From a bacterium (GTDB taxonomy: Bacteria > Hinthialibacterota > Hinthialibacteria > Hinthialibacterales > Hinthialibacteraceae): a stretch of 64,000 bases of DNA. The position numbers were made by a program, and so were the translations under genes. The notes under the pieces were generated by a model. The model was not told where the DNA came from. It worked only from the letters and a program-made list of their open reading frames with translations, and did no database searches. The DNA lies in contig CAXXMV010000002.1 in assembly GCA_963662285.2 (NCBI GenBank), forward strand, positions 960,001-1,024,000, read 5' to 3'. This document shows, one piece after another, positions 9,456 to 55,171 of this stretch (positions are counted from its first letter, which is position 1; each line of letters starts with the position of its first letter).

Positions 9456-10202
9456 ATGGCCAACATGGTTAAGATTAAAATCAAACGGCAAAAAGATCAG
9501 CGCTCTGAACCTTATTGGGAAGAATTTCAGGTCGATTATCAGCCCAATATGAACGTGATCACTCTTTTACAGGAAATTCAGCGCAATCCGGTTACTACCG
9601 ATGGACGTAAAACCACTCCGGTTTCATGGGATTGCAGCTGTCTCGAAGAAGTATGCGGCGCTTGTACGATGGTTATTAATGGAGAAGCGCAACAAGCTTG
9701 CAGCGCTCTAGTCGATAAATTCGAACAGCCAATCATCTTGGAGCCTATGCGTAAGTTCCCTATTATTCATGACTTGGTAGTTAATCGACAACGAATGTTC
9801 GACGCGCTTAAAAAAGTCAAAGCATGGATTCCCATTGACGGCACCTACGACCTTGGACCGGGACCTCGTCAGGCTTCAGCTGATCAAGAGGAAATGTACC
9901 TGTATTCGCGATGCATGACCTGTGGATGTTGCGTAGATTCATGCCCGCAATATACTCCCGATTCGGAATTTGTCGGGCCTTCTGCATTGGGGCAGGTCTT
10001 TCTCTTTAACCAGAATCCAACCGGGAAATTCAATAAAGATGAACGCTTGAATGCTATCATGGGCATAGGCGGCATCCAGGATTGCGGCAACGCCCAAAAC
10101 TGCGTCCGCGTCTGCCCCAAGGAAATCCCTCTTACTACGGGAATCGCGAAACTTAATGGAGCCACGCTAAGCCAAGCGGTAAAAAATTTACTCAAGAAAT
10201 AG
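9456..10202 (+). CDS. sdhB: Succinate dehydrogenase iron-sulfur subunit
   Basis: CLEEVCGAC...C, CMTCGCCVDSCP, CGNAQNCVRVCP. Confidence 0.97.
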   Translation: MANMVKIKIKRQKDQRSEPYWEEFQVDYQPNMNVITLLQEIQRNPVTTDGRKTTPVSWDCSCLEEVCGACTMVINGEAQQACSALVDKFEQPIILEPMRKFPIIHDLVVNRQRMFDALKKVKAWIPIDGTYDLGPGPRQASADQEEMYLYSRCMTCGCCVDSCPQYTPDSEFVGPSALGQVFLFNQNPTGKFNKDERLNAIMGIGGIQDCGNAQNCVRVCPKEIPLTTGIAKLNGATLSQAVKNLLKK

Positions 10203-18811: not shown

Positions 18812-20467
18812 TTATTCTTTCTCATATAAATAAGCCTTCAATTTTCCCGACTGAAATACCAATTCATCACCCTCATGCTCATGAACAGTGAGCAGTAAGA
18901 ATGGTGCAGGGGGCAGGTCGCCGCCTACTTTAATTGCGCCAGCAGGGTGATTCAGCCAATAATTCATGTTGGAAAGTAATTGAACGCCATTCTCTTCGCA
19001 GTAAATTAGGGTATCACCCCATTTTTTTTGTTCGACCTCTCTGCAAAAATCGTGTATCTCATTGGCTAGATATGTTTCAATGGCGGTTGTTCTGGTCTGC
19101 ATGATAAAATCGACTGCCGAAAGTTGGATAAACAGAATTATGACCACGGATATCACCATACCCGTTCTTTTACAGAATAGACAGATGATCCCTCCTATTA
19201 GTGAGGCGCCGATCAGGTATTTACATGCATTTAGCGCTCCCATGTTGCGCATTTGATAGATGAAATCTAATGATGGAGCGTTGGCCAGAAATTCATGGTT
19301 ATTGCTCAGTTTGCTCCATGCTTCTGGAATCAATAAACTTGCGGCCAGCAGCGGGATGATAATAATCAATGCGCCAATTCTGAGTATTCGCTCATTCCTG
19401 GATGCTTTGTGTAAGGCGCCCAATGACGCCGCGAAAATGGGAAGGCAGATTAAATTGATATAAAAGATATAGCGCAGCGATATCGACCAGGGTTCGATCC
19501 CCATGCGTTTAACGTAATAAACCGCCACTGTAACAGTCAGCGCTATGGCTGTTATAAAAGCAAAATAGGTTATTTCGCGGGATGTTTGGGTTAATTTGTC
19601 GGGTAATAACCAGGCAACCAGCCAGTGCACAATCATAAAGCCAGTGATCAGCAGGCCGCCTTCAAGCCATAATCCTGTCCAATGAGCCGAGAAAATGGAA
19701 ACGAAAAGAGCGAAGGAAGAGGGGAGGGCGTCATTATTAAACGAGGCGTATAATAACTGCGTTCCTTCTCTGGTGAAATATCCCAATTGCCACCACGCAG
19801 TTATTGTGATAGAGAAAGCCATGCCAAAAGCCATGAGCGGAGGCGCTGGATCGCGCTCGTGTTTCACTGTGCGGTAGACCACCCAGCCTAATGCTGTTGC
19901 GCAATAAACGATCAGGAAAATCCGCGTCAAAATCAGTCCCGCGATAGCCATGCCCAGAAAGGCGCCGTCCCGCACGCGGGGTCTTTGGTCTGTCAGAATC
20001 CGCGAAACAGATAACGCGCTCCAGATTACCAATGGCGCCGCCAGATTCTCACTCATAGTCCATTGCGTATATGCCGCTGATGGGTAAATCGCATATATAA
20101 GGCATACGAAAACTGCGTCTGATGGTTTGAGCATCCGGCGTGAATAGGCATACATGGGAAACAAGCCCAGAAAATAAATGGCGGGATTGATCCATGATTG
20201 AATCAGTTCAACCGTAAGATAATCTGGTGCGAAAAATCCGACGGAGATTAAAAAGGGATAAAACGGCGGAACTGGAAAATGCTTATTTAAATCAAAACTG
20301 GAAATATTATGCAATCCAAACGCCAGGCTTTTATAGAAAACCGAATCCCACACCACTTCTAATATTGGCGTATGCAGATTGGAAATTATTCCATGCATCA
20401 CAACCAGAGGTATATAAAACCAGATCAATCGAAATTCGTTGCGCTTATTCCAGAAGATGATATTCAT
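18812..20467 (-). CDS. Polytopic membrane protein, probable GT-C fold glycosyltransferase
   Basis: WDSVFY...PPFYP in the first loop, MSENL, RYIF; 12 or more TM segments; adjacent to an ArnT-like gene. Confidence 0.6.
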   Translation of the reverse strand: MNIIFWNKRNEFRLIWFYIPLVVMHGIISNLHTPILEVVWDSVFYKSLAFGLHNISSFDLNKHFPVPPFYPFLISVGFFAPDYLTVELIQSWINPAIYFLGLFPMYAYSRRMLKPSDAVFVCLIYAIYPSAAYTQWTMSENLAAPLVIWSALSVSRILTDQRPRVRDGAFLGMAIAGLILTRIFLIVYCATALGWVVYRTVKHERDPAPPLMAFGMAFSITITAWWQLGYFTREGTQLLYASFNNDALPSSFALFVSIFSAHWTGLWLEGGLLITGFMIVHWLVAWLLPDKLTQTSREITYFAFITAIALTVTVAVYYVKRMGIEPWSISLRYIFYINLICLPIFAASLGALHKASRNERILRIGALIIIIPLLAASLLIPEAWSKLSNNHEFLANAPSLDFIYQMRNMGALNACKYLIGASLIGGIICLFCKRTGMVISVVIILFIQLSAVDFIMQTRTTAIETYLANEIHDFCREVEQKKWGDTLIYCEENGVQLLSNMNYWLNHPAGAIKVGGDLPPAPFLLLTVHEHEGDELVFQSGKLKAYLYEKE

Positions 20468-34184: not shown

Positions 34185-37100
34185 ATGAACACGCGGAAAT
34201 TAATTTGGTTAAGATTTTTTTGCATAGTATTTATTCCCCTTATGTTAACTGTTGGCTGCGCTAAACGAGACGCTCAAAAGGCATTAACCTCGGCGCAAGC
34301 GGTAAAAGATAGCGCCTCGGCGGCGAAAGCGCCCGGTTATGCTCCAAAATCTTTTGCCGATGCCAATCGCTTGTTCACTCAGGCTGAGCAGCAGTTTAAC
34401 TCTGGTAACTATAAAGAGGCCATTGATTTCTATCAGCAAGCTGAAGTTGGCTTCCATAATTCCATTACGCGCGCTGAAGAGGTTAAACCCGTAATTGAAG
34501 CTCTTATTGCAAAAATTGATGATGCAATCGCAAAAGCTTCTGATAATATGGAAAAAGCTCGCAGTGGGAACGGCGTTCCTGCTGAAGAACTTTCTGCCGC
34601 TCAAGCCTTGGTTGATGGAATTAATGAGCGCATGGAAACAGACTATCGTAGTGAGGTCGATGAAGAAAAACTCAATGCTTTTCTTGCTGAAGTCGATCAA
34701 ACCATTCTGCGTACTGAAGCTTTAGCCCTGGCTCATCTCAAACCTCAAGCCAATACCGCTAAATCTGACATTCAAACTCTTATTACCCGAATCCAGGAAT
34801 TGAAAGCTGATGTTCATGCTCCTGAACAATATTCTCAAGTCATGACTCAATTCAGCCAGATTGAATCCGCTGAAAGCGATGGTCAATGGCAAAAAGTCAT
34901 TGATTTGGCCGCTGCAATGAATCCACTATTGGACAGCGTTATCCAATCCTGTCAGGAAAAAGCTGCTGGCGATATCCTTATTCAAACAGGTCAAATGATT
35001 GCTCAGGCCAAACAACTTAATGTACAAGGCCTTGAGTCATTCACCGCAGCAGTACAACGCGCTGATGATACCTTGAAAACCGGACAAACCGCATTACAGG
35101 GTAAAGACTATGCAGGCGCGATCAATGCGGCCGATGGCGCAAAACTCTCTCTCCAGGAAGCTTATCAAGCTATTGGAGCCCAGTCGCAACAAAGCATCGC
35201 GACCGCGAAAACAAACCTCGAAAATGCAATAGCTCAAGAAGCCGAAAAATACGCCGCATCGGTCGTTGCTCAAGTTAGACAATCTATTACTAGTGCTGAA
35301 GAACTGCTTCAGGCGCAAAAATTCGCTCAGGCTTTTATCGCTTCACAGCAAGCCTTACAGGTTAGCGGCAAAGCTGTTGATGCCGCTCGCCAAGGCAAAG
35401 CGCAACTCGCATTAAATACTGTTGAAAAGCCTTTCTCTATTCTTCATGGTCAGGGCGGCGCCAAATACGCTCCTGAAGCTTATAAAAATGTTCTGTCCAC
35501 CATTGAGAAGCTGCGCAGTATGATGAAAAAAGGTGAATTTGAGACTGTTGTTGCCGAATCACCCCAAGCTGCTCAGGCTGTAACGGCCGCTTTGGACGTC
35601 TTATCCCAATCCACCGCTAAAATTGCCGCACAAGCCGATGCCGCCTTGAAATCAGCAGAAATTGCCGGCGCTAAACAATGGGTGGGCGTTCAGTTCGCTA
35701 ATGCTTCAAACCTTAAATCTGCTGCTGATAAAGATCTTGCCGCTAAACGATTTCTTTCCAGTATTCGTAATTCCGAGTCTGCCATAAAATCCGCTAATGA
35801 CTCTGAAGGTAAAGCTTATAAACTTCAAACTGAACAGAATCTGCGCAAAGTCGATGATTTCCTCGCACTAGCTAAACGCGCTGAACAAGATAGATTGAGT
35901 CCACTGGCTTATCGAAAAGCAATTCAATCTAAAGAAGAAACCAATAATTTACTGGATCACGATCAATTCAAGAATGCTTTCCAAAATTCCAAAGAAACCT
36001 TAGCCAAGGCGGATCGCGCATTTAACAATTTGGTTGTTACCGCACAAGAAAAATCCAATTCCGCTCTCGAAGCGCAGGCTATGGATTATTCAGCAGAGGA
36101 AATTAAACAAGCCTTGGCCTGTCTTACCAAAGCTGAAATTGCCCAAAAAGCATCGAATTTCACATCCGCCAATGAGTTATCTATTGAATCAGCCTTACTT
36201 TCCGATAAAGCTGAAAACTTTACCTGGCAACAACGTAGTTATCGTTTGCTTCGCGACCTTGAAGGAGTTAAGGAAAAACTTGACATTAACCTGGCGCCAG
36301 AAAAAACTCCTGTTCTTTATGCAACGGTTTTGTCTTCTCTGGCTGAAGCAAGAGTAAAACAAATCGATAAAGATTATGCCGCCTCTTATCAATTCGCGGA
36401 TAAAGCGGATGCCGCCCAAAATGAAATTTGGAGCAGTATGCAGCAGGAATTGAATCAAACTCTTAGTGAATTAAAGCAGACCTGCGCCTGGATTGGCGAA
36501 AATGCCATGAATTCACAGGGGCGGGATATTAAAATTAAACTGATAGATTCTATTCCAGCTTTAGAGCAGGCCATCGCTCTCAAGGATTGGAGATCTGCAT
36601 ACGCTGAGGCTGAAAAATGTCAGAAAACCGCTGGCGTTATGACTGCCAGGTTAGAGTCGCTTAATCGTTCAGTTATGGCCAAAGATCTGCAAGGTTCACT
36701 TAGACCTTTCAGAAAAAATGTTGCTCTAGCTGTTATCCCTGATCAGAAAGATCAATTCGACGCAACATTAAGTTCTTTGAAAAAACCTGCTGAAGGCGAA
36801 ACTTATGCTGATGTATTAGGAAAATATAATAAAGCATCGGCAGAAATTGAGAACCTGCCAAAGACTATTTCTGAAAAAGCCACTTTCCGCACAGAAGAGA
36901 TAGTAACTATTATGCAGCAGGCCGAAGAAGCTGGCGCCGCCAAATTTTTTAAAGAGTGGTATCGTGATCTTACTTCAGATATTCAAATGCTGCGCAATGC
37001 AATTCGCGGAGAGAATATCGCTGATATTTCCAAATATACTCGTAGATTAGATCGTGAAGCGCCGGAACTCTTAGCTGCTTGTCAACTGGCTACCCTTGAA

Positions 37101-37628
37101 GATGAATTTTACAAGGAAATTGAAGATGATTTGAATCAGATGAATAACGTATTTCAAGAATTTGGCTTCCTTGGACGAATTCCTAAAACTTTGTTGATGG
37201 CGAGTCGTATGACAGAATATCAGATGGATGAAACATCGATTAATATGTATAAATCCATGCAAGGGAATATGTCGGTCAAAACTTTCCGCATTAATGCTGA
37301 GTTATTAGAAGATACGGTCAAAGACTTGACGCCGCCTAAGACTGTTGAGCGGGTGCACCGTAATGCAGTTAAATCATTTACCCTATTCAGAAAAGCGGCT
37401 GAGGCTTTTGAACTCTTTGGCGACACTGATGCGCATGATATTTATTATCGCGAAAAAACCTTAGTCAAAGGTTATGATAATTTGAAAGAAGCTCTCAAGA
37501 TTAATGAAAAAGTCATGTTCGATATTAAAGAAGCCCGCAAATTAAGAGGAATGGATAAGTTCCTGGTTGGCATCGAGCAAATTGGCGATAAATTTGGAGC
37601 ATTCTTCCTGGGATTGGACAACGAGTAA
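34185..37628 (+). CDS. Large Ala/Gln/Lys-rich helical-repeat lipoprotein (DUF4398-like repeats)
   Basis: AGGAG RBS; lipobox LTVGC; recurring A..(Y/H)AP..(Y/F)..A units at roughly 70-75 aa spacing. Confidence 0.8.
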   Translation: MNTRKLIWLRFFCIVFIPLMLTVGCAKRDAQKALTSAQAVKDSASAAKAPGYAPKSFADANRLFTQAEQQFNSGNYKEAIDFYQQAEVGFHNSITRAEEVKPVIEALIAKIDDAIAKASDNMEKARSGNGVPAEELSAAQALVDGINERMETDYRSEVDEEKLNAFLAEVDQTILRTEALALAHLKPQANTAKSDIQTLITRIQELKADVHAPEQYSQVMTQFSQIESAESDGQWQKVIDLAAAMNPLLDSVIQSCQEKAAGDILIQTGQMIAQAKQLNVQGLESFTAAVQRADDTLKTGQTALQGKDYAGAINAADGAKLSLQEAYQAIGAQSQQSIATAKTNLENAIAQEAEKYAASVVAQVRQSITSAEELLQAQKFAQAFIASQQALQVSGKAVDAARQGKAQLALNTVEKPFSILHGQGGAKYAPEAYKNVLSTIEKLRSMMKKGEFETVVAESPQAAQAVTAALDVLSQSTAKIAAQADAALKSAEIAGAKQWVGVQFANASNLKSAADKDLAAKRFLSSIRNSESAIKSANDSEGKAYKLQTEQNLRKVDDFLALAKRAEQDRLSPLAYRKAIQSKEETNNLLDHDQFKNAFQNSKETLAKADRAFNNLVVTAQEKSNSALEAQAMDYSAEEIKQALACLTKAEIAQKASNFTSANELSIESALLSDKAENFTWQQRSYRLLRDLEGVKEKLDINLAPEKTPVLYATVLSSLAEARVKQIDKDYAASYQFADKADAAQNEIWSSMQQELNQTLSELKQTCAWIGENAMNSQGRDIKIKLIDSIPALEQAIALKDWRSAYAEAEKCQKTAGVMTARLESLNRSVMAKDLQGSLRPFRKNVALAVIPDQKDQFDATLSSLKKPAEGETYADVLGKYNKASAEIENLPKTISEKATFRTEEIVTIMQQAEEAGAAKFFKEWYRDLTSDIQMLRNAIRGENIADISKYTRRLDREAPELLAACQLATLEDEFYKEIEDDLNQMNNVFQEFGFLGRIPKTLLMASRMTEYQMDETSINMYKSMQGNMSVKTFRINAELLEDTVKDLTPPKTVERVHRNAVKSFTLFRKAAEAFELFGDTDAHDIYYREKTLVKGYDNLKEALKINEKVMFDIKEARKLRGMDKFLVGIEQIGDKFGAFFLGLDNE

Positions 37629-44613: not shown

Positions 44614-45237
44614 GTGAGCTCCACCGAAAACGAATTAATGAGGAAGACTATGAGAAAAGGACGTATGGATTGGGTAACGGAATTATCCGAACGGTATGGG
44701 CGCATGGTGTTTTCAACTGCTTACCGGATTCTGGGGAATCCCCAGGATGCGGAAGACGTCCTGCAGGAAGTGTTTCTAAAACTGCTGGGCAAATGGAACT
44801 GGCGGATAAAACCGGATGCCGTGCGGGATTGGGGCGCTTACCTGCGGGTAATGGCGCTTAGAACGTCAGTCGACTTGTTGCGCAGAAAACCGAAATATAA
44901 AGAGGCGAGTTGGGAACTGGTTCAGGAACAAGAGGCGCCAGGCGGGAGTCCCAGGCATCTGGCCAGCCAAAAACAAAAAGCCCGTTTTCTACGTCAGGCG
45001 CTTGCTCAACTACCAGAGCGTGATGCAAAAGTTTTCGCTATGCGATTCTTCGAGAATTTTGCCTATGATGCAATCGCCGAAAACCTGAACATCAGCGTCA
45101 ACCAGGTTGGCGTGATTCTTCACCGCACACGGGAACGTCTCAAGGAAATTCTACCATCCATAGAGTCCAACATAGATGAATCAAAAAATGATGATACGGA
45201 TCGATCAAGACTTAACAAGGAGATAAACCATGCCTAA
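44614..45237 (+). CDS. ECF-family RNA polymerase sigma factor
   Basis: AYRILGNPQDAEDVLQEVFL (region 2); region 4 HTH, LHRTRERLK; true start may be a downstream ATG. Confidence 0.92.
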   Translation: MSSTENELMRKTMRKGRMDWVTELSERYGRMVFSTAYRILGNPQDAEDVLQEVFLKLLGKWNWRIKPDAVRDWGAYLRVMALRTSVDLLRRKPKYKEASWELVQEQEAPGGSPRHLASQKQKARFLRQALAQLPERDAKVFAMRFFENFAYDAIAENLNISVNQVGVILHRTRERLKEILPSIESNIDESKNDDTDRSRLNKEINHA

Positions 45238-46447
45238 GAACGATAATGATAAACAAGTAGTAGAGTTGTTCCAAAACGATGACATGGGAACTCTTCAGGA
45301 CTGGGTCGATGCCGTGTTGGAAGACGAACCGGATGAAACGCAGTGGCAGGCAGCCCGGTGCAATCTGGCGGCGTCGCTTGAAACTAATACCAAGGAGAAC
45401 TTTATCATGAGAGCCATTCGAAATTCAATATTAGGACAATACCGCTGGGTAACAATAAGCGTCTTTGCAGTTTTAATTATTGCCATTGTCGGTGGAATAG
45501 GACTATGGAATCCCAAGCCGGGCCTGGTCTTCGCAGAAGTTCTGGAGCAGGTCCGACAGGTGCACACTTTCCATTTTACCAACATAGTGGAGATGGAAAA
45601 TCAAACAATGGAAATGCAGACGGATTATATGGATCCCGGTAAACAGCGGTTGGTTATGTCTAATGGCAGTATCATTATTATGGATATGGCGCAGGGTAAA
45701 ACCATCAGCTTGACTCCTTCAGCTAAGATGGCTTCGGTGGTCGATTTTTCCGATGATCCTAACTTGCAGCCTCAGGAAAACCTGATTGAAACGCTGCGCA
45801 AACTTGAAGATGGCGCCGAGGAACTCCTGGGTCAGAAAGAAATGGATGGGAAACTGGTCTATGGATTCAAGGTGATTATGGCAGGCCGGGATTTTGTTAT
45901 CTGGGCCGATCTGAAATCTGGACTCCCGGTACGGATTGAAATTCAGCAAGCCATGTATGGCGCCATGAAGATCATAATGACAGATTTTGAATACAATATA
46001 GATATGGATGAATCATTGTTCAGCCTGGAACCGCCTGCTGATTATAAGTTGATCACACTGGATAAACCAGATTTGGGAGCGCCGACTGAAACTGATCTCA
46101 TCGAGACTATGAAACTGGTCACTAATGATAAAAATAAATCTTTCCCGAAAGATTTGGATCTTATGACTTTATCGAAACAATATGGTTTAAGTAATCCGTT
46201 TCAAAGCGCCAAACCATCCAATGATGATATCGCGAAATTCGCCAACAATTTTGCAAAATTGAGCCGGGGAGCAATGTTTTTCCAACAGAACATAGATAAT
46301 GACTGGCATTACGAACCGGAAGGCAAAAAACTTGGAGATTCAGAGCCGTTATGCTGGTGGAGGGCTGTCAATTCAGAAACCTACCGGGTGATTTATTGCG
46401 ACTTGACTGTTGCGGATGTATCACTGGACGAGTTTGTGAAAGAATAA
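45230..46447 (+). CDS. Putative anti-sigma factor: single TM plus periplasmic LolA-like domain
   Basis: Overlaps the ECF stop; TM near aa 75-93; WADLKSGLPVRIE...DFEYN...LFSLEPPADY LolA-fold signature. Confidence 0.75.
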   Translation: MPKNDNDKQVVELFQNDDMGTLQDWVDAVLEDEPDETQWQAARCNLAASLETNTKENFIMRAIRNSILGQYRWVTISVFAVLIIAIVGGIGLWNPKPGLVFAEVLEQVRQVHTFHFTNIVEMENQTMEMQTDYMDPGKQRLVMSNGSIIIMDMAQGKTISLTPSAKMASVVDFSDDPNLQPQENLIETLRKLEDGAEELLGQKEMDGKLVYGFKVIMAGRDFVIWADLKSGLPVRIEIQQAMYGAMKIIMTDFEYNIDMDESLFSLEPPADYKLITLDKPDLGAPTETDLIETMKLVTNDKNKSFPKDLDLMTLSKQYGLSNPFQSAKPSNDDIAKFANNFAKLSRGAMFFQQNIDNDWHYEPEGKKLGDSEPLCWWRAVNSETYRVIYCDLTVADVSLDEFVKE

Positions 46448-46916: not shown

Positions 46917-47660
46917 ATGTCACATCAACCTATGGATAATGGGAATCAAGCATCAGAGAAAGATTCTCGTTACTATGATGTCAACTTTTTTAAACCCAAA
47001 ACAGACCATTCCCGGTCGAATCGGAACATGATTGTTATTATGGTTTTGATTTGGGCGGTAGCTGTTTTTGGATTCCAGTTTGCACTGGTAATTTTTAATC
47101 AAGCCACGCCGGAAGATAGTTACACCAGTTTTGAAACAGTATGGCCCAAAATTCAGGATGGAAGCGCCAGCGCCAGCGAGCAGCAGGAATTCGCACGGAT
47201 TACGCTTTCTGTTATTGGTAAAAATATTGCCCTCATGGCTGATGATAAAGAAATTTTGCAGGATACCTTGACGCAAACCGTCGTTGGGTTGCTGCCCGCA
47301 GATCAAAAATCGGCGTTTCAAGCAAATCTGGCCGATGACGCCAAGAAACAGCAGGCCGTGACATCCGCTATACAAGCCATAGGATTAAAAGACTCCGGTT
47401 TCGATAAACTGCGCGCTGATTTACTGCCTTCTTCTCTTATTGCTAAAACCTCTGGTAAATTAAGCAAAGATATCCCAGGTATTATGGAACTTTATTTAGT
47501 TCATAATCAAAGTTTTCTGACTAATTTCATCTTTATGGGTTTTCCTTTCCACTATTGGTACACTGCTCAATTCTTGCTGATTCTTTTTGTCGTTATATGC
47601 CTGATATACGCGGCTTTTACTGACAAAATGAATACGAAATATGATTTTGCTGACGAGTAA
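46917..47660 (+). CDS. DUF4212-type small partner of an SSS transporter, with a large loop insertion
   Basis: N..MIVIMVLIWAVAVFGF (TM1) and GFPFHYWYTAQ..LFV..IYA..KYD (TM2); directly upstream of the SSS gene. Confidence 0.8.
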   Translation: MSHQPMDNGNQASEKDSRYYDVNFFKPKTDHSRSNRNMIVIMVLIWAVAVFGFQFALVIFNQATPEDSYTSFETVWPKIQDGSASASEQQEFARITLSVIGKNIALMADDKEILQDTLTQTVVGLLPADQKSAFQANLADDAKKQQAVTSAIQAIGLKDSGFDKLRADLLPSSLIAKTSGKLSKDIPGIMELYLVHNQSFLTNFIFMGFPFHYWYTAQFLLILFVVICLIYAAFTDKMNTKYDFADE

Positions 47661-47699
47661 GAGTTTTTTATAACATACATTTTTTAATAGGAGATAAGC

Positions 47700-49382
47700 A
47701 TGATACGATTCAATAAATCGTTACTTATAAGCATGTTGTTAATGCTAGTATCAAGCAGCGCCTTTGCTCAAACTACAAAAGCCACTGAACTTGAGGGAAC
47801 CTTCAAACTCGGTCCGGCTGTTATTCTTATTATATTACTTACCACCTTTGTCATGGTTGGTCTTTTTAACCGCGCCAAAGATACATCGTCCTATTGGGCG
47901 GCGGGACGTAAAATTTCACCTATGGGCGCTGGTATGGCTATCGCCTCTAACTGGATGAGCGCCGCTTCGTTCCTGGGTATGGCCGCCATTATGTACGGCT
48001 CCGGCTACCATGGTCTCTCTTATGTGGTTGGCTGGACTGGCGGTTATGTGCTATTGCTCATCCTGATGGCTGGTCAGATTCGCCGCTTTGGTAAATATAC
48101 CGCAGCGGACTTTATCGGCGACCGTTATTATTCCAGAGGTCTTCGGGCTTTTGGCGCCTGTCTGGCAATTTTTATATCATTCTCATATTGCGTAGGTCAA
48201 TTCGCCGGCATTGGTTTGATGTTCAAATGGATTCTGGGCATCGATTACGCCTATGCGGTTATCATCGGAAGTTCAGTGGTTCTTTGTTATACTCTGATTT
48301 CCGGTATGCTCGGCGTCACCAAGAATATGCAGATTCAATATGTTATCATCATCATTTCATTTATGATTCCTCTGTTTATTCTATGCTATTGCTACGGGTT
48401 TTTCTTTGTATTCCCTCAAATCGGTTATGGCGCAGTTGTCACGGATGTTGTTAAAGGTCTTGAACCTGGAACGGCGGTCAACGCGATGGGGCATGATTTC
48501 GGTATATTGCCGTCGCCGGAATTCGCCATGCCCTGGGATCCGGCAACAGGTAAAACCTCCTTCCAATGGCTCGCCATTTGCTTCTCGTTGATGATCGGTA
48601 CAGCTGGTCTGCCTCATGTTATTCAGCGTTTTTATGTTGTTCCCAGAGCCAAAGACGCCCGTTGGTCAGTTGTATGGGGACTCTTCTTTATCTGTTTGCT
48701 CTATTGGAGCGCTCCGGTTTATTCCGCTTTTGGAAAAATCCTTTCCTCCAATCCAGATGTAGGCAAACTGGCCAAAGACGCCATTGTGGTTTATACCGCT
48801 CAGTTAGGCAATATATACCCGATTGTTGTAGGCTTCCTGGCGGCGGGCGCCGTATCGGCTGCATTTTCTACTGTATCCGGGCTATTAGTGGCTGGCGCAT
48901 CCGCCTTTTCTCATGACTTGTACTTCAAGGTTATTAATCCCCAAGCCAGCGAACGCACTCAAATGTTGATGGCCCGCATCGGCACCATTCTGATGGCTAT
49001 TGCGGTTACGATTGTCGCTTTGATGAAATTGGGATTAATCGCTCAGTTAGTGGCTGTGGCTTTCTCATTGGCTGGCTGCACCATCTTCCCATTGTTCCTA
49101 TTGGGAATCTGGTGGAGCGGTTCAAACCGCGCTGGCGCGTGGGCTGGACTCTTGGCGGGAAGCGCTGTGTCTCTAATCGCTTTGGTATACTTCGTCTGCG
49201 GCGTAATGGAAGTAACTCTTCCAGCTCATGCTTTCATCTCTTATTACTTGAATGCATGGTACTTCGCCTGGTTAGGCGCTCCTCTGGCGATTATTAGTAA
49301 CATCGTCGTCTCTCTGGCGACTGGCTGCGATACGCCGGTTGAAATCAAAGAATTCCTGGCCAAAAAAGTTCATGGCTATTAA
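47700..49382 (+). CDS. Sodium:solute symporter, ActP-like (cation/acetate or monocarboxylate)
   Basis: YWAAGR, AIASNWMSAASFLG, GKYTAADFIGDRY, GTAGLPHVIQRFY, AAFSTVSGLL. Confidence 0.92.
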   Translation: MIRFNKSLLISMLLMLVSSSAFAQTTKATELEGTFKLGPAVILIILLTTFVMVGLFNRAKDTSSYWAAGRKISPMGAGMAIASNWMSAASFLGMAAIMYGSGYHGLSYVVGWTGGYVLLLILMAGQIRRFGKYTAADFIGDRYYSRGLRAFGACLAIFISFSYCVGQFAGIGLMFKWILGIDYAYAVIIGSSVVLCYTLISGMLGVTKNMQIQYVIIIISFMIPLFILCYCYGFFFVFPQIGYGAVVTDVVKGLEPGTAVNAMGHDFGILPSPEFAMPWDPATGKTSFQWLAICFSLMIGTAGLPHVIQRFYVVPRAKDARWSVVWGLFFICLLYWSAPVYSAFGKILSSNPDVGKLAKDAIVVYTAQLGNIYPIVVGFLAAGAVSAAFSTVSGLLVAGASAFSHDLYFKVINPQASERTQMLMARIGTILMAIAVTIVALMKLGLIAQLVAVAFSLAGCTIFPLFLLGIWWSGSNRAGAWAGLLAGSAVSLIALVYFVCGVMEVTLPAHAFISYYLNAWYFAWLGAPLAIISNIVVSLATGCDTPVEIKEFLAKKVHGY

Positions 49383-49417
49383 TCGTTATTAGTTGTTCTT
49401 ATGATTGATTGCTTACT

Positions 49418-49450
49418 ACTCACCCCGCTTTGATAAAAAGCGGGGTGAGT
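49418..49450 (+). terminator. Terminator hairpin after the SSS gene
   Basis: ACTCACCCCGCTTT-5nt-AAAGCGGGGTGAGT. Confidence 0.75.
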
Positions 49451-49525
49451 TCTATAGAAGGCAAACTGAAATTCTGGCATAATTGCACCAGTATACAATT
49501 CCCCGGATCGTAGGAAAGGAAACTG

Positions 49526-51040
49526 ATGAATCGACTTAAACCTATTCTGTTATTTATTGGGATGAACCTGATATTATCCACTATCATTGATGGCGCCGAA
49601 TCAAATGTTGCCGCGACTAAAGTTAACCAAAACTATCGACTGACGGATAAGTCGCTTTCTGATGCGCTGGCTCAAGACTGGGAACGGATGCATGCCAGTA
49701 AGCAAAGCGTGCTTAAAAAATTCAACGATGATAAATTTGGTATGTTTATTCACTGGGGGCTATATTCCCTGACTTCGGGTGAATGGAAGGGTAAGCGGTT
49801 CAAAGGTCTCGGCGAGTGGGTTATGTATCACGAAACAATCCCACGGGATGAGTATGCCGGGTTGTCCAAACAGTTTAATCCTGACAAGTTCGATGCCGCA
49901 ACATGGGTTAGTTTGGCGAAGAATGCCGGGATGAAGTACATCGTTATCACCGCCAAGCATCATGATGGTTTTGCTCTATTCCCCAGTAAGCATAGTAAAT
50001 TCAATGTTAAAGATATGACTTCCTGCGATTTCGTCCCATTGGATTTACTCTATGAAGAATGTCAGAAACAGGGCATCGGTCTTGGATTTTATTATTCCCA
50101 TGTAATTGATTGGCGCGATGGATGGAATCCGGTCGACAGTAAGCCCGATGAACATGGCCGTGATAAATCAAATCCCATGAATAGCTGGGACCCTTCTGGT
50201 AATACAAGAGAAGAATATTTCCATAACAAGTCCTATCCTCAGTTACAGGAACTTTTGGATCGCTATCCTAAACTTTATTCGATTTGGTTTGACTATTGGC
50301 ATAAAGACAAATATCTCAATCCTCCAGAGAGTTACAAATTCTACAAGATGGTGTATGACGCCCAGCCGGATTGTCTGGTGAATTCACGGGTGGGACATGA
50401 TCTGGGTGATTACATAACGGCTGGAGATAACAATATTCTCGATAAAGGGCAAACAAGACAATGGGAAACTCCAGGTACGCTTAACAACACTTGGGGATAC
50501 AATAAGCATGACACCGACTGGAAGAGCGAAAAAGAACTTATTTATTTGATGGTTAATATCTTTAGCCGGGGTGGTAACTATCTGCTCAATATCGGGCCCA
50601 AACCTGATGGCTCGATCCCGCAGGGAACTATAGATGGCTTCGCCGCCATTGGCCGTTGGATGCGCATCAATAGTGAGGCTGTTTATGGTACCAAAACCTG
50701 GATCGTCACTGATGAAGGTGCGCCGGAATTAACCGTTAACGACACGGTTGATCGTGAAGTAAAAGGCTTTAAGACTGTAGTTACCAGCGAGGACTTTTGG
50801 TTCACCGCCAAGGGGGACGTGGTTTATGCGATTGCTCTGAAAATTCCCGATGACGGAAAGGCGCTGATTAAATCAGTTAATTCCAATCGCCTGACTGACG
50901 TATCCAATGTTTCATTGCTGGGTTATGGTGAATTATCGGGCTGGGAATTTGGCGAAGCTGGATTGGCTTTGTCATTACCCAAAATTAATCTGGATACTAT
51001 TGGTTATGTTTTGAAAATTGAAACTCAGGGCGTGGAATAG
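49526..51040 (+). CDS. Alpha-L-fucosidase (GH29), exported
   Basis: KFGMFIHWGLYS, TAKHHDGF, IWFD (nucleophile), GGNYLLNIGP; N-terminal signal. Confidence 0.93.
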   Translation: MNRLKPILLFIGMNLILSTIIDGAESNVAATKVNQNYRLTDKSLSDALAQDWERMHASKQSVLKKFNDDKFGMFIHWGLYSLTSGEWKGKRFKGLGEWVMYHETIPRDEYAGLSKQFNPDKFDAATWVSLAKNAGMKYIVITAKHHDGFALFPSKHSKFNVKDMTSCDFVPLDLLYEECQKQGIGLGFYYSHVIDWRDGWNPVDSKPDEHGRDKSNPMNSWDPSGNTREEYFHNKSYPQLQELLDRYPKLYSIWFDYWHKDKYLNPPESYKFYKMVYDAQPDCLVNSRVGHDLGDYITAGDNNILDKGQTRQWETPGTLNNTWGYNKHDTDWKSEKELIYLMVNIFSRGGNYLLNIGPKPDGSIPQGTIDGFAAIGRWMRINSEAVYGTKTWIVTDEGAPELTVNDTVDREVKGFKTVVTSEDFWFTAKGDVVYAIALKIPDDGKALIKSVNSNRLTDVSNVSLLGYGELSGWEFGEAGLALSLPKINLDTIGYVLKIETQGVE

Positions 51041-51065
51041 AAAAATCCATGGTTTTAGAAAACAA

Positions 51066-51214
51066 CCCCCTCTTGAATTCTCCCCCAAACTTGGGGGAGA
51101 GGGATTTTGTGAGATAACAAGGTGTATCTTTGGTGGGTCGGTGAGGCGTGACCCACCCTACACTTAGTTGGTTACGAATTCCTCTCCCAAGATTGGGAGA
51201 GGTAAGGAGAGGGG
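51066..51214. repeat. Composite repeat: two inverted CCCCTCT..CTCCC/GGGAG palindromes (family F) bracketing a family B REP
   Basis: TCTCCCCCAA-AC-TTGGGGGAGA (51079-51100), CCTCTCCCAA-GA-TTGGGAGAGG (51181-51202), and reverse-complement family B at 51129-51161. Confidence 0.75.
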
Positions 51215-51240
51215 TGATAGCATTAATTTAAGGAATTCGC

Positions 51241-54153
51241 ATGGCCATTACCAACAGTCATCGTTTCGTGACGCGGGGATTTCTCTTACGGATTATCCTG
51301 CCGACTATTTTGACAATATGTCTCTTTGTTATCACGCTGTTTTTTCTTCTCATTCCAGCCTTTGAGAAAACCATCCTGGACCGTAAGCGCGAGATGATCC
51401 GCGAGTTGACCAATTCGGCCTGGAGCGTTCTGGTCGAGCTCGAAGCCGAAGAGAAAGCCGGGAAACTATCGCAGAGCGAGGCGCAGCAGAGAGCCATCGA
51501 CCGCATCCAATTCCTGCGCTATGGCGATGAGAGTAAGGATTACTTCTGGATTTCTGATATGGCGCCGCGTATGGTGGTTCACCCATACCGCCCTGAGTTG
51601 AACGGCCAGAGCCTGTTAGATTATCAAGACCCCACCGGAAAGAAACTATTTATAGAATTCGTCAATGTAATCAAGGAAAAACAAGAGGGTTACGTCGATT
51701 ATATGTGGCAATGGAAAGACGACGAGACGCGCATCGTACCCAAACTTTCTTTCGTCAAAGGCTTCAAACCCTGGGGCTGGATCATCGGCACCGGCATATA
51801 TATCGAAGACGTCAAAGAGGAAATCGCCAAAATATCTCAGCGCCTTATTCTGATCTCCGCCGCTATTACTGCGCTCATAATTATTCTGCTGCTGTTTATT
51901 ACCCAGCATAGTTTGATGATCGAGAAGCAACGCAAACAAGCTGAACACGAACTTCGGGCATCCCGTGAGAAATACAAAACTCTGGTAGAAGCATCAACCG
52001 AAGGCTTTAGCATGATTGTTGAAAATAAAGTCTTTTACGCCAATCAGACTTTTCTTGATATGCTCGGTTATCAAGCCGGTGAGTTTAAGGGCGCCTCTAT
52101 AGATTGCCTCATGGCTGATGATGGAACCAACAATCATTACTGGAAAGATTTCCTGGAAAACAAACCTGTTCCCCCCAAGTATCTGGCGCAAGTATTGAAA
52201 AAAGACGGAGACATGCTGGATGTGCTTCTTTCCACTTCTCGCATCTCTTTCGCCGGTCAGGACGCCATACTTATAGTCGCCAAAGACGCAACCTATCATC
52301 AGGAACTGGAAGAGGAACTGGGAGATAGCAAAGCAAAATATGAAGCATTGACCAACAATATCAGCATGGGAGTCTTTCGCGCATCCCTTGGAAAGAAAGG
52401 CCGGTTGATTGAGGCCAATCCGGCGGCTGTATCTATTTTCGGTTTTCAGGATAGAGAAGGACTCTTTTCGACGCCGCTAAAAGAATTGATGCACGATGAA
52501 GAAGACTATGTACAATTCCTGCTTGAATTGAACAAAAACAAGTCAGTCAAAAATAAAATTGTTCGCATTCGCAGACAAGATGGAACGGTTCCGATAGTCT
52601 CTATATCTGCGGTTTTGATTGATGATGGCCGCTCCCCGAAATATCTGGACGCCATTTTGGAAGATATTACCTCCCGGGAAAAAATTGATCAGGAACGGGA
52701 TGATTTAATCGTTGAGTTGCAGACTTCGTTGATTTATCTTAATCAACCGATCCGGCATTCAATTCGTGAGATGCTATCCTGCGACATGAACCAATCGATC
52801 AGACGCGCTGCAACTTTGATGACCAAACATAATGCTTCCGCCATTCTGGTTAAATCAGAACAGGGGGATTATCTGGGCGTGGTAACCGACCATGATATCC
52901 GTTCGCGGGTTGTGGCGGAGAACTATGACCAACAAAAACCTGTCTTTGAAATCATGAGTTCACCGCTGATCACTATCTCCGATCATGCTCTTATTTTCGA
53001 AGCGGCTTTGCTGATGCAGCAGAAACGCATTCGCCATCTGGCGATTAAAGATCATTCGGGTGAAATTATCAGTATTATTACTGATAAGGAACTCTTGCAA
53101 GTGCACCGCTATTCTTCCGCTATCCTCTTGCAGGAATTGCAAAAGGCGGAATCGCTCGACGAAATCATGGAAGGATGTGAACGCCTTCCCCTACTGGTCA
53201 AAGCGTTAATAGACAGCGGCGCCAAGGCCCGGAATATTACCCGGATCATCACTACTATTTCCGACGTCATTATCTATAAGGTTATCAATATCGCTTTTGA
53301 TGAACTGGGCGCTCCACCGGCCAGTTTCGCCTTTATCGCAATGGGCAGCGTCGGTCGGGAAGAGCAGACCCTGACTTCTGATCAGGATAACGCGATTATT
53401 TTTGAGGATGTGTCCGCTGATCGTATTGAAGAAGTCCAGACTTATTTTCTCTCTTTTGGAAAGAAGGTCTGCACTTATCTTGATCAAGCGGGATACGACC
53501 TTTGTAAGGGAGAGGTGATGGCCATGAATCCCAAATGGTGTCAGCCTCTTGCGCAATGGCAGGATTATTTCTCTGAATGGATAACCACAGCTGATCCGCA
53601 AGCCTTGCTCGACCTGAAGATATTCTTTGATTACCGGTTTCTTTTTGGTGATGAAGAATTAGTGGAGTCGCTTACTTCGCATCTTCATAAAGTAATAGAG
53701 GGCAAAGCCGCCTTCTTCCAGAATCTGGCTTCCAACACATTATTATTCAAGCCGCCGTTGGGCTTCTTCGGTAATATTGTTGTTAAAGATAAGCAGGGGC
53801 ATCCGGAAACCTTTGATATCAAAGACGCCATGATTCCCATAGTCGACTTCGCCCGGACCTACGCCTTGCAAAAACATATTGTTGAAACCAATACCCTTGA
53901 TCGGTTGCTGCGCCTGTCTGAAATGAATGTTTTTACCAGATCAAGTTATGAAAACGCTGTTCAGTCTTATAATCTTTTGATGCAGTTACGTTTTAAGCAT
54001 CAATCCACCGCCTTGAATCAAAACATCCAGCCGGATAACTTTATCAATCCCAAATCTCTGACCAATATAGAACTGAGTATGTTAAAGAAAACCTTCTCAC
54101 AAATCAGCGATTTTCAATCTAAACTTAGTTTTGATTTTACTGGTTCGGGATAG
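51241..54153 (+). CDS. Membrane sensor: TM-sCache_2-TM-PAS-PAS-CBS pair-DUF294 nucleotidyltransferase-DUF294_C
   Basis: LRYG..DYFWI..MVVHP..DPTGK..YMW..PKLSFVK.F.PWGWIIGTGIY (sCache_2); two PAS domains; GVVTDHDI...IMSSP (CBS); MGSVGREEQTLTSDQDNAI (NTase). Confidence 0.88.
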   Translation: MAITNSHRFVTRGFLLRIILPTILTICLFVITLFFLLIPAFEKTILDRKREMIRELTNSAWSVLVELEAEEKAGKLSQSEAQQRAIDRIQFLRYGDESKDYFWISDMAPRMVVHPYRPELNGQSLLDYQDPTGKKLFIEFVNVIKEKQEGYVDYMWQWKDDETRIVPKLSFVKGFKPWGWIIGTGIYIEDVKEEIAKISQRLILISAAITALIIILLLFITQHSLMIEKQRKQAEHELRASREKYKTLVEASTEGFSMIVENKVFYANQTFLDMLGYQAGEFKGASIDCLMADDGTNNHYWKDFLENKPVPPKYLAQVLKKDGDMLDVLLSTSRISFAGQDAILIVAKDATYHQELEEELGDSKAKYEALTNNISMGVFRASLGKKGRLIEANPAAVSIFGFQDREGLFSTPLKELMHDEEDYVQFLLELNKNKSVKNKIVRIRRQDGTVPIVSISAVLIDDGRSPKYLDAILEDITSREKIDQERDDLIVELQTSLIYLNQPIRHSIREMLSCDMNQSIRRAATLMTKHNASAILVKSEQGDYLGVVTDHDIRSRVVAENYDQQKPVFEIMSSPLITISDHALIFEAALLMQQKRIRHLAIKDHSGEIISIITDKELLQVHRYSSAILLQELQKAESLDEIMEGCERLPLLVKALIDSGAKARNITRIITTISDVIIYKVINIAFDELGAPPASFAFIAMGSVGREEQTLTSDQDNAIIFEDVSADRIEEVQTYFLSFGKKVCTYLDQAGYDLCKGEVMAMNPKWCQPLAQWQDYFSEWITTADPQALLDLKIFFDYRFLFGDEELVESLTSHLHKVIEGKAAFFQNLASNTLLFKPPLGFFGNIVVKDKQGHPETFDIKDAMIPIVDFARTYALQKHIVETNTLDRLLRLSEMNVFTRSSYENAVQSYNLLMQLRFKHQSTALNQNIQPDNFINPKSLTNIELSMLKKTFSQISDFQSKLSFDFTGSG

Positions 54154-54364: not shown

Positions 54365-55171
54365 TCAGGCAAAATACCCCCTCAGTATTTCAGCCGCCAG
54401 ATGTGGTTTCATTTCAAAGCATTCTGAGATCAGGGGTCCCTGGTAATTTATGCTTTGCAATTCATTCGCTAATGTTTTCCAGCAGACGTTTCCTTCGCCT
54501 GGAGCTAAGTGGTCGTCAAAATTTCCATCGTTATCATGGAAATGAAGATTGACCATTTTTGAACCGACCTTTTCTATATATACTGAATATCCCTCATTGG
54601 TGTTGGCATGACCGATATCCAGACAAAAACTGATCCAGTCGCAGTTGATTCTCTCAAAGATAAACTCAAAGTCGCTTACGCAGTCGCCCAGAAAGTACAA
54701 TTCAGTTCCATCGCGTAAAGTTACGGCATTTTCCAACGCCAGATGGACTTCGGCATCCGTGCAGATTCCTTCCAGTTCAGTTAAACTTTTAACCACGGTC
54801 TCCAGCATCTGTTTGCGCAGCCAGGGCCATGATTGGATGCTATTGAAACTTCCCAGGTGGCAGGTGATATGGGTGGCATTGATTTCTTTGGCGATGTTGA
54901 AGCACTTTTTTAAGTAGGTGATATTGGATTTACGAATAAAGAAAATCCGCTCAGCCAGATTGAGGTTGTATGGCGCATGCAAACTTAATGAGATGCCGGA
55001 GTCTTCTGAGAGTTCCCGTAGGTTTTCGATTCGTTTGGTAGTGAAGGTTTGGATGATTGAATGGTCTTTGATTAAATCAATTTCCAAATGGCGTAAACCA
55101 TGCGAGGCGGCGTAATCGAAATATTCTTCAACTGGTTTGTGGTAAATGCTGAAACCAAATGTCAGATTCAT
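54365..55171 (-). CDS. Sugar phosphate isomerase/epimerase (AP endonuclease 2 TIM-barrel)
   Basis: SLHAPY, LALEN, CLDIGHA, HFHDNDG..DDHLAPGEG, ISE. Confidence 0.88.
   Translation of the reverse strand: MNLTFGFSIYHKPVEEYFDYAASHGLRHLEIDLIKDHSIIQTFTTKRIENLRELSEDSGISLSLHAPYNLNLAERIFFIRKSNITYLKKCFNIAKEINATHITCHLGSFNSIQSWPWLRKQMLETVVKSLTELEGICTDAEVHLALENAVTLRDGTELYFLGDCVSDFEFIFERINCDWISFCLDIGHANTNEGYSVYIEKVGSKMVNLHFHDNDGNFDDHLAPGEGNVCWKTLANELQSINYQGPLISECFEMKPHLAAEILRGYFA

Follow-up and report, generated by a model that had tools for sequence, protein, structure and literature searches.

The gene at positions 51241..54153 of the window analyzed here, 64,000 nucleotides of contig CAXXMV010000002.1 from a bacterium of the Hinthialibacteraceae, encodes a receptor of the DUF294 (COG2905) signalling nucleotidyltransferases (NTases) that is anchored in the membrane. 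Its architecture joins a sensor with an intact ligand pocket to an NTase module whose catalytic residues are kept and whose fold is that of GlnE and DrrA, and in related genomes its gene is linked to sodium:solute symporters (SSS) and to phosphoesterases. From these observations we infer a ligand, a transfer chemistry, a protein acceptor, a target in the transporter complex and a role for a neighbouring TIM-barrel gene. That the receptor is part of a carboxylate-gated switch which controls monocarboxylate uptake by nucleotidylation, in a "write and erase" manner, is in our judgement an evenly balanced proposition.

The domains were assigned with Pfam and the transmembrane segments (TM1, TM2) from hydrophobicity:

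51241..54153, + strand: receptor of 970 amino acids (aa), TM1-sCache_2-TM2-PAS-PAS-CBS pair-DUF294-DUF294_C
51307-51363, + strand: TM1, hydrophobic segment, residues 23-41
51379..51837, + strand: periplasmic sCache_2 domain, residues 47-199 (PF17200, 3.2e-41, 141.3 bits)
51844-51900, + strand: TM2, hydrophobic segment, residues 202-220
51967..52632, + strand: two cytoplasmic PAS domains, residues 243-351 (PAS_9/PAS_8) and about 366-464 (PAS), TIGR00229
52747..53109, + strand: CBS pair, about residues 503-623 (PF00571 in two stretches, 1.5e-18, 67.3 bits)
53182..54138, + strand: GlnE/DrrA-like NTase module, DUF294 at residues 648-787 (1.5e-47) and helical DUF294_C at residues 824-966 (5.2e-39)

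This domain order had been proposed in the first-pass annotation, made from the sequence alone, and was borne out by Pfam and the hydrophobic segments, as was its statement that histidine kinase, chemoreceptor signalling and GGDEF domains are absent: HisKA, HATPase_c, MCPsignal and GGDEF gave no Pfam match in the receptor at E<=0.01. At the same threshold there is no cNMP_binding match, unlike in the canonical soluble DUF294 form. The CBS pair lies directly upstream of the NTase, and CBS proteins in the PDB such as 2yzi align to residues 503-623. Because the segments 23-41 and 202-220 bracket the Cache domain, this domain is outside the membrane and everything beyond residue 220 is inside.

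The nearest solved structures of the Cache domain are 4k08 (8.5e-39) and 5g4y (1.8e-32). PscD (5G4Y/5G4Z) binds glycolate, acetate, propionate and pyruvate; Y90, H103, Y143 and K156 form hydrogen bonds, W92 and W145 sandwich the ligand and F126 forms the back wall, and the same seven contact residues occur in McpP and in acetate-bound Adeh_3718 (4K08) (Brewster et al., PMC5062169). In a HMMER alignment PscD Y90/W92/H103/F126/Y143/W145/K156 correspond to receptor Y101/W103/H114/F137/Y154/W156/K168, so that all seven are kept (7/7), and they are invariant in the full-length homologs (31/31). Because of this conservation here and in the homologs, the prediction of a C2/C3 monocarboxylate as the ligand of the Cache domain is well supported, and the carboxylate-type pocket suggested by the first reading stands. 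Among the NCBIfam models the N-terminal 240 residues match the MctS sensor best (1.2e-28), with 99.6 bits against an MctS cut-off of 700.

The output module matches DUF294 (PF03445, 161.4 bits, cut-off 21) and DUF294_C (PF10335, 133.8 bits, cut-off 22.5). It carries the NTase motif G702-S703-x-G705-R706-x-E708 followed by D714-x-D716, and D797 is likely to be the third catalytic acid. All 55 homologs (55/55) keep G702, S703, D714 and D797, and all but one (54/55) keep D716; by its residues the enzyme thus appears catalytically intact across this set, in agreement with the earlier description of the motif. The structure of residues 625-970 was predicted from a 55-row alignment (pLDDT 94.7) and the model was aligned to each of 48,161 PDB representatives. 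The top matches were the N-terminal domain of GlnE (1v4a, Z 27.3, 307 residues aligned), its C-terminal domain (3k7d, Z 26.1) and DrrA (6yx5_B, Z 25.7), and the same three entries headed the Foldseek search. The next match was partial, with a Z of 13.4, and aminoglycoside NTases, oligonucleotide-making enzymes and terminal uridylyltransferases (TUTases) ranked far lower (Hailong HalB 9dbh, Z 7.0; TUTase 3hj1, E 0.33). The GlnE domains and DrrA each add AMP to, or remove AMP from, a protein tyrosine. On the sequence level the module is outside the GlnE family, with 16.5 bits to PF03710 (cut-off 24) and 19.8 bits to PRK14109 (cut-off 625).

We searched 5.8 billion clustered proteins for this architecture; 7999 candidates were scored, 2259 of them matched, and 120 matches, the query included, were listed. 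The Cache-DUF294 architecture is present in at least 119 other protein clusters and is widespread, not rare, which had been missed before. Among the matches listed the proteins are 862-1245 aa long and 46-91% identical, all of them with sCache_2, CBS, DUF294 and DUF294_C and five also with a PHP domain; the source names of these clusters are generic throughout. For the gene neighbourhoods we used the best 80 loci (numbered L) from a collection of species genomes, nearly all of them metagenome-assembled. The 577 "relatives" in this collection were drawn by Cache-domain patterns, may hold other Cache proteins and are not counted as family members. The 80 loci span, among others, Bacteroidota, Ignavibacteria, Calditrichaceae, Chloroflexota, Deltaproteobacteria, Acidobacteriota, Gemmatimonadetes, Sumerlaeota, Armatimonadota, Elusimicrobia, Kiritimatiellia, Lentisphaerales and NC10.

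Open reading frames (ORFs) in the neighbourhoods were called by a simple greedy rule and clustered, and Pfam and NCBIfam were run on the cluster representatives. ActP/MctC-like or VC_2705-like symporters and their DUF485 or DUF4212 small subunits recur beside the receptor gene, together with a calcineurin-like metallophosphoesterase (Metallophos) of about 250 aa, a 408-aa protein without Pfam match, CRP-like regulators, and Cache kinases with sigma-54 regulators. Of the 80 loci 46 are full, with a complete receptor gene flanked on either side by 3 kb or more. Within six genes of the receptor 37 of these have an SSS gene (33 on the same strand) and 31 a DUF485/DUF4212 small subunit; a phosphoesterase is fused or adjacent in 36 (Metallophos 22, fused PHP 12, adjacent TIM barrel 2). 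A tblastn search of the 80 loci with the window proteins found similarity to the SSS protein in 56, to the long DUF4212 protein in eight and to the TIM barrel in four. The host genome assembly (7.29 Mb, 92.5% complete) holds one DUF294 gene, one VC_2705 symporter over cut-off and about 18 SSS-like frames, from which the chance of an SSS gene within 20 kb is about 5%. The linkage to DUF4212 and SSS genes drawn in the first-pass annotation was therefore confirmed. Among the outcomes named beforehand as speaking against the first reading were homologs lacking the NTase aspartates and homologs lacking DUF4212/SSS co-occurrence; the aspartates are present in 54-55 of 55 and the symporter in 37 of 46.

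A receptor ORF of at least 800 aa was found in 70 of the 80 loci, while eight have a truncated one and two (L024, L074) none under our caller. These 70 loci comprise 32 with an adjacent Metallophos gene, 19 long forms with a fused PHP domain, four with an adjacent TIM barrel and 15 with no recognised partner. In all of the long forms (19/19) the PHP domain is N-terminal, ahead of TM1; it is nearest to a 3',5'-nucleoside bisphosphate phosphatase (137.6 bits) and to RNase RNM (110.7), both under cut-off. Among the 15 partner-less loci, three of which are at contig ends, an HD phosphohydrolase (HD and HD_assoc) adjoins the receptor in L033 (12900-14246). A 111-aa DUF6915 ORF does so in L034 (12604-12939; 27.4 bits, cut-off 27), and L037 (12544-12879) has a homolog of it from the same cluster with no Pfam match of its own. 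On a quick maximum-likelihood tree of the NTase module (55 rows; 12 eligible rows left out by hand and four dropped for incomplete alignment) the partner type is clustered, with 11 changes compared with 26.1 in shuffles and 0/200 shuffles as low. The window receptor groups with exactly L003, L005, L007, L010 and L013 (SH-aLRT branch support 88, not starred). The first reading had spoken of a one-component system; the sensor-gated NTase stands, but the conserved phosphoesterase partner had been missed, and with it the system would become a writer/eraser pair.

Several further observations were made at these loci. A protein of about 408 aa without Pfam match lies 3' of the symporter or 5' of the small subunit in 19/80 loci (e.g., L003:2758-3981, L076:15115-16341). 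In the ESM Atlas it is placed with clusters of DcaP-like outer-membrane porins (score 0.99; PF19577 in 13-79% of members) and it probably serves this module as a carboxylate channel in the outer membrane; the host genome has a homolog (178 bits) on another contig (C6:872403-873848). In L011, L020, L027, L043 and L065 a CRP/FNR-type regulator (cNMP_binding and HTH_Crp_2) lies between the receptor gene, with or without Metallophos, and the operon of the symporter and its DUF485 or DUF4212 subunit. L052 (Desulfobacter latus, 4552-9656) has two Cache-DUF294 receptor genes tail to tail, one of them encoding 864 aa with an N-terminal extension of about 180 aa without assigned family and no CBS match; no symporter or phosphoesterase was seen within 10 kb. 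In L012, L016, L022 and L054 an sCache_2 histidine kinase adjoins the receptor, in the first three together with a sigma-54 response regulator, so the same sensor type has two outputs in one locus.

The partner families are unrelated to each other and yet have one chemistry in common. RNase_T (the partner of the soluble form, see below), Metallophos, PHP, HD and endonuclease IV (EndoIV)-like families all include enzymes freeing a 5' nucleoside monophosphate (NMP) from a hydroxyl group, the reverse of nucleotidyl transfer. The repeated replacement of one phosphodiesterase by another, unrelated one therefore argues for a hydrolysable nucleotidyl mark as the product. Where L012, L016 and L022 already carry a transcriptional arm in their Cache kinase and sigma-54 regulator, the NTase would be left with a post-translational role. 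On these two grounds, hydrolases reversing nucleotidyl transfer and loci leaving a post-translational role, we favour the carboxylate-gated switch.

The same partners would also suit an NTase that answers external carboxylate by synthesizing a small nucleotide signal, be it an oligonucleotide, cyclic or linear, or some other nucleotide second messenger, with the phosphoesterase degrading this signal and a cNMP-binding effector reading it. Hydrolases of nucleotides and oligonucleotides are found among the partner families (PHP near 3',5'-nucleoside bisphosphate phosphatase and RNase RNM, RNase_T with the soluble form), the CRP-like regulators mentioned above adjoin the receptor in 5/80 loci, and the soluble form carries a cNMP-binding domain (PMC5715377). 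The GlnE/DrrA-like fold, however, includes the helical substrate-binding domain (Z 26-27) and lies far from the oligonucleotide-making NTases, 75/80 loci are without a cNMP-binding effector and no CRP-like gene adjoins the receptor in the window. We consider a small signal very unlikely.

Nucleases that process 3' ends are likewise found in each of the RNase_T, PHP, Mre11-like Metallophos and EndoIV families. The pair might therefore act on RNA, the NTase tailing the 3' end of transporter or carboxylate-regulon RNA and an exonuclease-type partner trimming it, which would set expression and not activity. Speculations in print go in this direction, namely a requirement of the neighbouring gene for symporter expression (Price et al., bioRxiv 10.1101/072470) and mRNA degradation (Henriquez et al., PMC9927547). 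We hold this to be highly improbable: Pfam found no RNA-binding domain in the receptor, its nearest folds are protein AMPylators and not poly(A), CCA or TUT enzymes, and in L012, L016 and L022 the kinase and sigma-54 regulator stand already beside the NTase.

In the window the candidate eraser is a gene which the first-pass annotation had not noticed:

54365..55171, - strand: endonuclease-IV-like TIM barrel of 268 aa, convergent with the receptor gene (AP_endonuc_2, 1.6e-37)

Orthologs are found in the same convergent position in L003, L005, L007 and L010, with gaps of -19, -3, 386 and 48 nucleotides (nt). H65, H105, E147, D185, H188, H210, D219, H221 and E250 are invariant in the five proteins (5/5). 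A profile alignment with E. coli Nfo (hhalign, probability 79%, E 1.5e-5, 199 columns) places these nine residues on H69, H109, E145, D179, H182, H216, D229, H231 and E261, which we take to be the ligands of its three-metal site. H70, H110 and E261 are important in Pyrococcus EndoIV, and MJ1311 is listed as a predicted EndoIV homolog in the same paper (PMC2770678). MJ1311 (3wqo) is also the best PDB sequence match of the TIM protein (1.7e-29). The protein is under the cut-off of the nfo family (TIGR00587, 22.9 bits, cut-off 129.65).

Genomes beyond these loci were also searched for the TIM gene. In the L013 genome the contig ends 72 nt past the receptor gene and the one strong ortholog (445.7 bits) stops about 94 nt short of the end of another contig, an arrangement compatible with adjacency across a contig break. 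The L008 and L059 genomes, whose receptors are 51% identical and not on the tree, have one strong ortholog each (374 and 376.5 bits), not beside the receptor. All three further genomes of the clade (3/3) thus have a strong ortholog, and none of 12 genomes has one in which the receptor is of the Metallophos or PHP type or lacks a partner (0/12, best 75.2 bits). The complex of receptor residues 490-970 with the TIM barrel was predicted in two runs with a score of 0.00, which we count neither for nor against.

A different possibility is that the TIM gene encodes a sugar-phosphate epimerase or isomerase of unrelated function and accompanies the receptor gene through shared descent or cassette transfer, in which case there would be no dedicated eraser in this genome. 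The fold search with the TIM model (pLDDT 75.1) gave 3wqo first, then epimerases, with E. coli EndoIV 8rly at rank 46, and so does not separate EndoIV-like from epimerase-like enzymes; MJ1311 itself was deposited as "D-tagatose 3-epimerase-like". The convergent orientation, the separation from the receptor in L008 and L059, and the fact that four of the eight TIM-clade genomes are Melioribacteraceae, so that the counts are not independent, fit this explanation too. The nine invariant positions, on the other hand, match EndoIV and not the epimerases, which have a four-ligand metal site. The adjacency holds across Bacteroidota, Calditrichaceae, Melioribacteraceae and UBA2214 genomes. L076, a Melioribacter with a Metallophos-type receptor and of the same family as the four, has no TIM ortholog, and the TIM clade lacks every other partner type. 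In the 92.5%-complete host genome there is no RNase_T (PF00929) match anywhere and no DUF485 match (own HMM, hidden Markov model), and the best match to our own Metallophos partner HMM (43.9 bits) is far off on another contig. We regard the epimerase as a less probable but serious candidate, and lean slightly towards the TIM barrel being the functional eraser of this genome.

For the soluble form we turned to 151 genomes titled Gammaproteobacteria, the class of the L034 genome. PF03445 was over cut-off in 84/151, a tally that includes weak GlnD/GlnE-like matches, among them those of the unpublished genomes G039 and G117, which gave weak matches only and from which no region was taken. Strong matches are in frames of 610-690 aa, which are the soluble form; the frames with weak matches measure about 880-1200 aa and probably encode GlnD or GlnE. 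Of 20 regions of 19.9 kb around strong matches, 12 contain an SSS gene and nine a small subunit (own HMMs), which confirms the earlier remark that soluble CBS-DUF294 proteins often sit beside actP/DUF4212 genes. To this an RNase_T exonuclease is added as a further constant; it adjoins the soluble NTase in nine of the 20 regions (9/12 tested ORFs of about 230-250 aa, Pfam). An acetyl-CoA synthetase is found in 7/20 regions (7/7 tested ORFs, Pfam). L123, L125 and L134 (genomes G043, G139 and G123) have two soluble DUF294 genes a few kb apart, and in L123 and L134 the pairs flank the DUF4212 and SSS genes. In all forms the constant set is a sensor-gated GlnE/DrrA-like NTase, a phosphodiester hydrolase of varying family and a monocarboxylate symporter with small subunit.

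Some genetics has been published for the soluble form. DUF4212 is required for the downstream symporter, with phenotypes on D,L-lactate and D-alanine, and is cofit with a nearby gene called "COG2905 (RNAse T domain protein)" (Price et al., bioRxiv 10.1101/072470). In Pseudomonas putida PP_0354 and PP_0353 form an operon under ErdR, and growth on pyruvate is impaired by the loss of the exonuclease PP_0353 or of actP-I and not by that of the NTase PP_0354 (Henriquez et al., PMC9927547); loss of yjcH likewise impairs growth on pyruvate (2026 preprint, bioRxiv 10.64898/2026.09.07.749794). Since the eraser-null mutant resembles the transporter-null mutant while the writer-null mutant is silent, these data are consistent with an inhibitory mark on the transporter route. 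The function of PP_0353/PP_0354 is still called unknown by the authors of the preprint. A DUF294 NTase with a hydrolase beside carboxylate symporters is already in print, unexplained. In the literature searched we found no paper on a Cache-type DUF294 receptor, and what appears to be new in the window is the TIM barrel as partner, the DUF4212 subunit in its long form and the lack of both acs and RNase_T.

Could the NTase instead nucleotidylate an enzyme or regulator of short-chain-acid metabolism, the linkage to the symporter reflecting a shared regulon only? The propionate phenotypes of PP_0353 and PP_0354 described below, which arise without a yjcH or actP-I phenotype (bioRxiv 10.64898/2026.09.07.749794), would fit, as would Acs beside the soluble form in 7/20 regions. 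Pflu5625 (cAMP-binding, CBS, NTase) is under CrbS/R and its mutant is reported to be without phenotype (Sepulveda and Lupas, PMC5715377), which points the same way. The recurring partners of the soluble and membrane forms are, however, the symporter with its small subunit and the phosphoesterase. No AMP-forming acetyl-CoA synthetase AcsA over cut-off was found in the 92.5%-complete host genome (best 147 bits, cut-off 724.95), there is no acs near the receptor gene in the window, and acs was not seen recurring beside Cache-type genes, where the candidate ORFs of about 620-680 aa were not identified. Acetyl-CoA synthetase, named as a possible target in the first-pass annotation, is thus unlikely here, and a metabolic target altogether we judge to be unlikely.

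The carboxylate-gated switch that we prefer would work as follows. The periplasmic sCache_2 domain would bind a C2/C3 monocarboxylate, e.g., acetate, glycolate, propionate, pyruvate or lactate, and the signal would pass through TM2, the two PAS domains and the CBS pair to the GlnE/DrrA-type NTase module. This module would attach an NMP, with AMP and UMP as the likeliest, to a hydroxyl group on its target, and a separate phosphodiesterase would take the mark off: Metallophos or the fused PHP domain in most relatives, RNase_T in the soluble proteobacterial form and the TIM barrel at 54365-55171 here. In this way the switch would control monocarboxylate uptake through the DUF4212/VC_2705 symporter, the writer being probably inhibitory and the eraser activating. 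If there is such a switch, a protein acceptor is marginally favoured, whereas the transporter complex as the target is doubtful. The fully specified version, in which Cache occupancy gates an NTase that AMPylates or UMPylates the DUF4212/SSS complex and the eraser position is refilled by an RNase_T, Metallophos, PHP, HD or TIM de-nucleotidylase, we offer as a long shot. Protein de-nucleotidylase activity is not known for any member of the endonuclease-IV TIM fold.

A number of points weigh against the switch. There is no symporter in 9/46 full loci and no recognised phosphoesterase in 10/46, and in the window an unrelated GH29 gene and a terminator-like hairpin part the receptor gene from the symporter. 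Since the top structural match 1v4a is the AMP-removing domain of GlnE, the modelled NTase could remove a nucleotide instead of adding one. A biochemical activity of any DUF294 protein was not found in the literature searched. In P. alloputida mutation of PP_0353 or of PP_0354 reduces growth on propionate, an effect not seen in the mutants of yjcH and actP-I (bioRxiv 10.64898/2026.09.07.749794). As these phenotypes arise without a transporter phenotype, they point to at least one further target, and the transporter cannot be the sole one in P. alloputida. With respect to the eraser, sugar epimerases are at least as good a structural match to the TIM protein as EndoIV is, and MJ1311, its nearest relative in the PDB, is a protein without known function. 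The TIM gene is convergent with the receptor gene and hence not co-transcribed, and in two clade genomes the ortholog lies away from the receptor, by about 800 kb in that of L008. Of the nine Nfo ligand positions, three are backed by PMC2770678, as H70, H110 and E261 of the Pyrococcus enzyme.

Upstream of the receptor the first-pass annotation had placed DUF4212, SSS and GH29 genes on the same strand, and this was confirmed (5e-14, 1.8e-52 and 2.8e-79). All four ORFs were found on the + strand at 46917-47660, 47700-49382, 49526-51040 and 51241-54153:

46917..47660, + strand: long-form DUF4212 symporter small subunit, 247 aa (PF13937, 5e-14; TIGR03647, 42.4 bits, cut-off 26.05)
47700..49382, + strand: VC_2705-family sodium:solute symporter, 560 aa (SSF, 1.8e-52; TIGR03648, 486.6 bits, cut-off 320.75)
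49526..51040, + strand: GH29 alpha-L-fucosidase, 504 aa (Alpha_L_fucos, 2.8e-79), with an N-terminal hydrophobic segment as signal peptide
51078..51101, + strand: terminator-like hairpin in the gap between GH29 and the receptor gene, 10 pairs, six of them G-C, then a T run, GGATTTTGTG

The symporter is of the VC_2705 family and not ActP-like as had been stated before; TIGR03648 gives 486.6 bits, while it is far under every ActP cut-off (TIGR02711, 185.8 against 1099.25 bits; PRK09395, 211.9 against 750). The DUF4212 gene, preceded by a good ribosome-binding site (GAGGAGG), is directly upstream at a distance of 39 nt, and both TIGR03647 and TIGR03648 are over cut-off. In the DUF4212 protein the Pfam and NCBIfam matches are confined to residues 200-245, i.e., to the second TM helix alone. 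The TM scan gave helices at 39-57 and 216-234, between which there is a helical, acidic insert of about 140 aa matched by no family. With the K/R-rich N-terminus placed in the cytoplasm, a periplasmic location is predicted for the insert, which should be on the same side as the Cache domain of the receptor. Such long orthologs adjoin the SSS gene in 8/80 loci (L003, L008, L010, L013, L020, L035, L059 and L080) and are 234-286 aa long, versus about 86-116 aa at the gammaproteobacterial loci.

GH29 similarity was found by tblastn in 0/80 related loci, and the gene is a local insertion, interposed and outside the conserved module. Because the hairpin stands between GH29 and the receptor gene, co-transcription of receptor and symporter is doubtful; terminator-like sites in the region total 12 compared with 9.5 in shuffles, i.e., not above shuffles. 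A route from fucose to lactate (GH29, an FGGY kinase and an iron-dependent alcohol dehydrogenase) feeding the symporter was ruled out, the kinase being GlpK (817.7 bits against 498) and the dehydrogenase being under every cut-off. At 44614-46447 of the window an ECF sigma factor gene (Sigma70_r2/r4) overlaps by 8 nt the gene of a 405-aa single-pass membrane protein without family (45230-46447), which is probably the anti-sigma factor of the former. By tblastn in the 80 loci the sigma factor was found in one, and the anti-sigma-like ORF and an ion channel in none; the sigma/anti-sigma-like pair, absent from all but one locus, is therefore not part of the receptor module. The 405-aa ORF was also considered as the conserved neighbour of about 408 aa described above and ruled out, with similarity in 0/80 loci, a single TM helix after about 70 residues and the overlap with the sigma factor gene. 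Elsewhere in the window three ORFs, 34185-37628 (1147 aa), 10381-12528 (715 aa) and 18812-20467 (551 aa), have no Pfam family at E<=1e-5.

DUF294 proteins occur in a large share of bacterial genomes and belong to the acetate/pyruvate regulon of Pseudomonas and Vibrio. The Cache-type receptors ease the problem which they pose, because the ligand can be predicted from a solved pocket and the membrane anchor keeps the protein beside its presumed target. If the switch is real, it would be a case of signalling across the membrane without phosphorylation, methylation or a cyclic dinucleotide, and the TIM partner would widen the known chemistry of the endonuclease-IV fold.

The receptor can be compared with known systems in each of its parts. 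The sensors of PscD, Adeh_3718 (4K08) and McpP belong to the same sCache_2 family (1.8e-32 to 8.5e-39) and their seven contact residues are identical, but their output is a methyl-accepting chemotaxis protein signalling domain where the window receptor has an NTase, and its ligand is predicted. The MctS-type sCache_2 histidine kinases and the SSS-fused kinases CrbS and MxtR regulate monocarboxylate transporters and thus share its physiological theme; unlike these the window receptor lacks HisKA and HATPase domains as well as a response regulator. Soluble COG2905 proteins (PP_0354/PP_0353 of P. putida KT2440 and Pflu5625 of P. fluorescens; PMC9927547, PMC5715377) have the same CBS-DUF294-DUF294_C output, adjoin DUF4212/DUF485 and SSS genes and pair with a phosphodiester hydrolase as at the receptor locus. 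Their cNMP-binding N-terminus is replaced in the receptor by TM-sCache_2-TM-PAS-PAS, so its input is extracellular; their partner is RNase_T, whereas it is a TIM barrel in the window, with no RNase_T match in the host genome and no acs nearby.

With GlnE and the AMPylation domain of Legionella DrrA/SidM the receptor shares the NTase plus helical substrate-binding fold over about 300 residues and the G-S ... D-x-D ... D residues, at 13-16% sequence identity and with a single NTase module compared with the two of GlnE. The TIM protein has the AP_endonuc_2 fold of MJ1311 (3WQO) and of E. coli Nfo, and its invariant residues match nine metal-ligand positions of the latter; its genomic context is signalling, in contrast to DNA repair for Nfo. 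GlnD is a functional analogue with an HD "eraser" and ACT sensors, and the fused-PHP form of the receptor resembles its writer-plus-eraser layout. In the fully specified version of the switch, the gating of the symporter by the receptor would be loosely analogous to GlnD/PII/AmtB.

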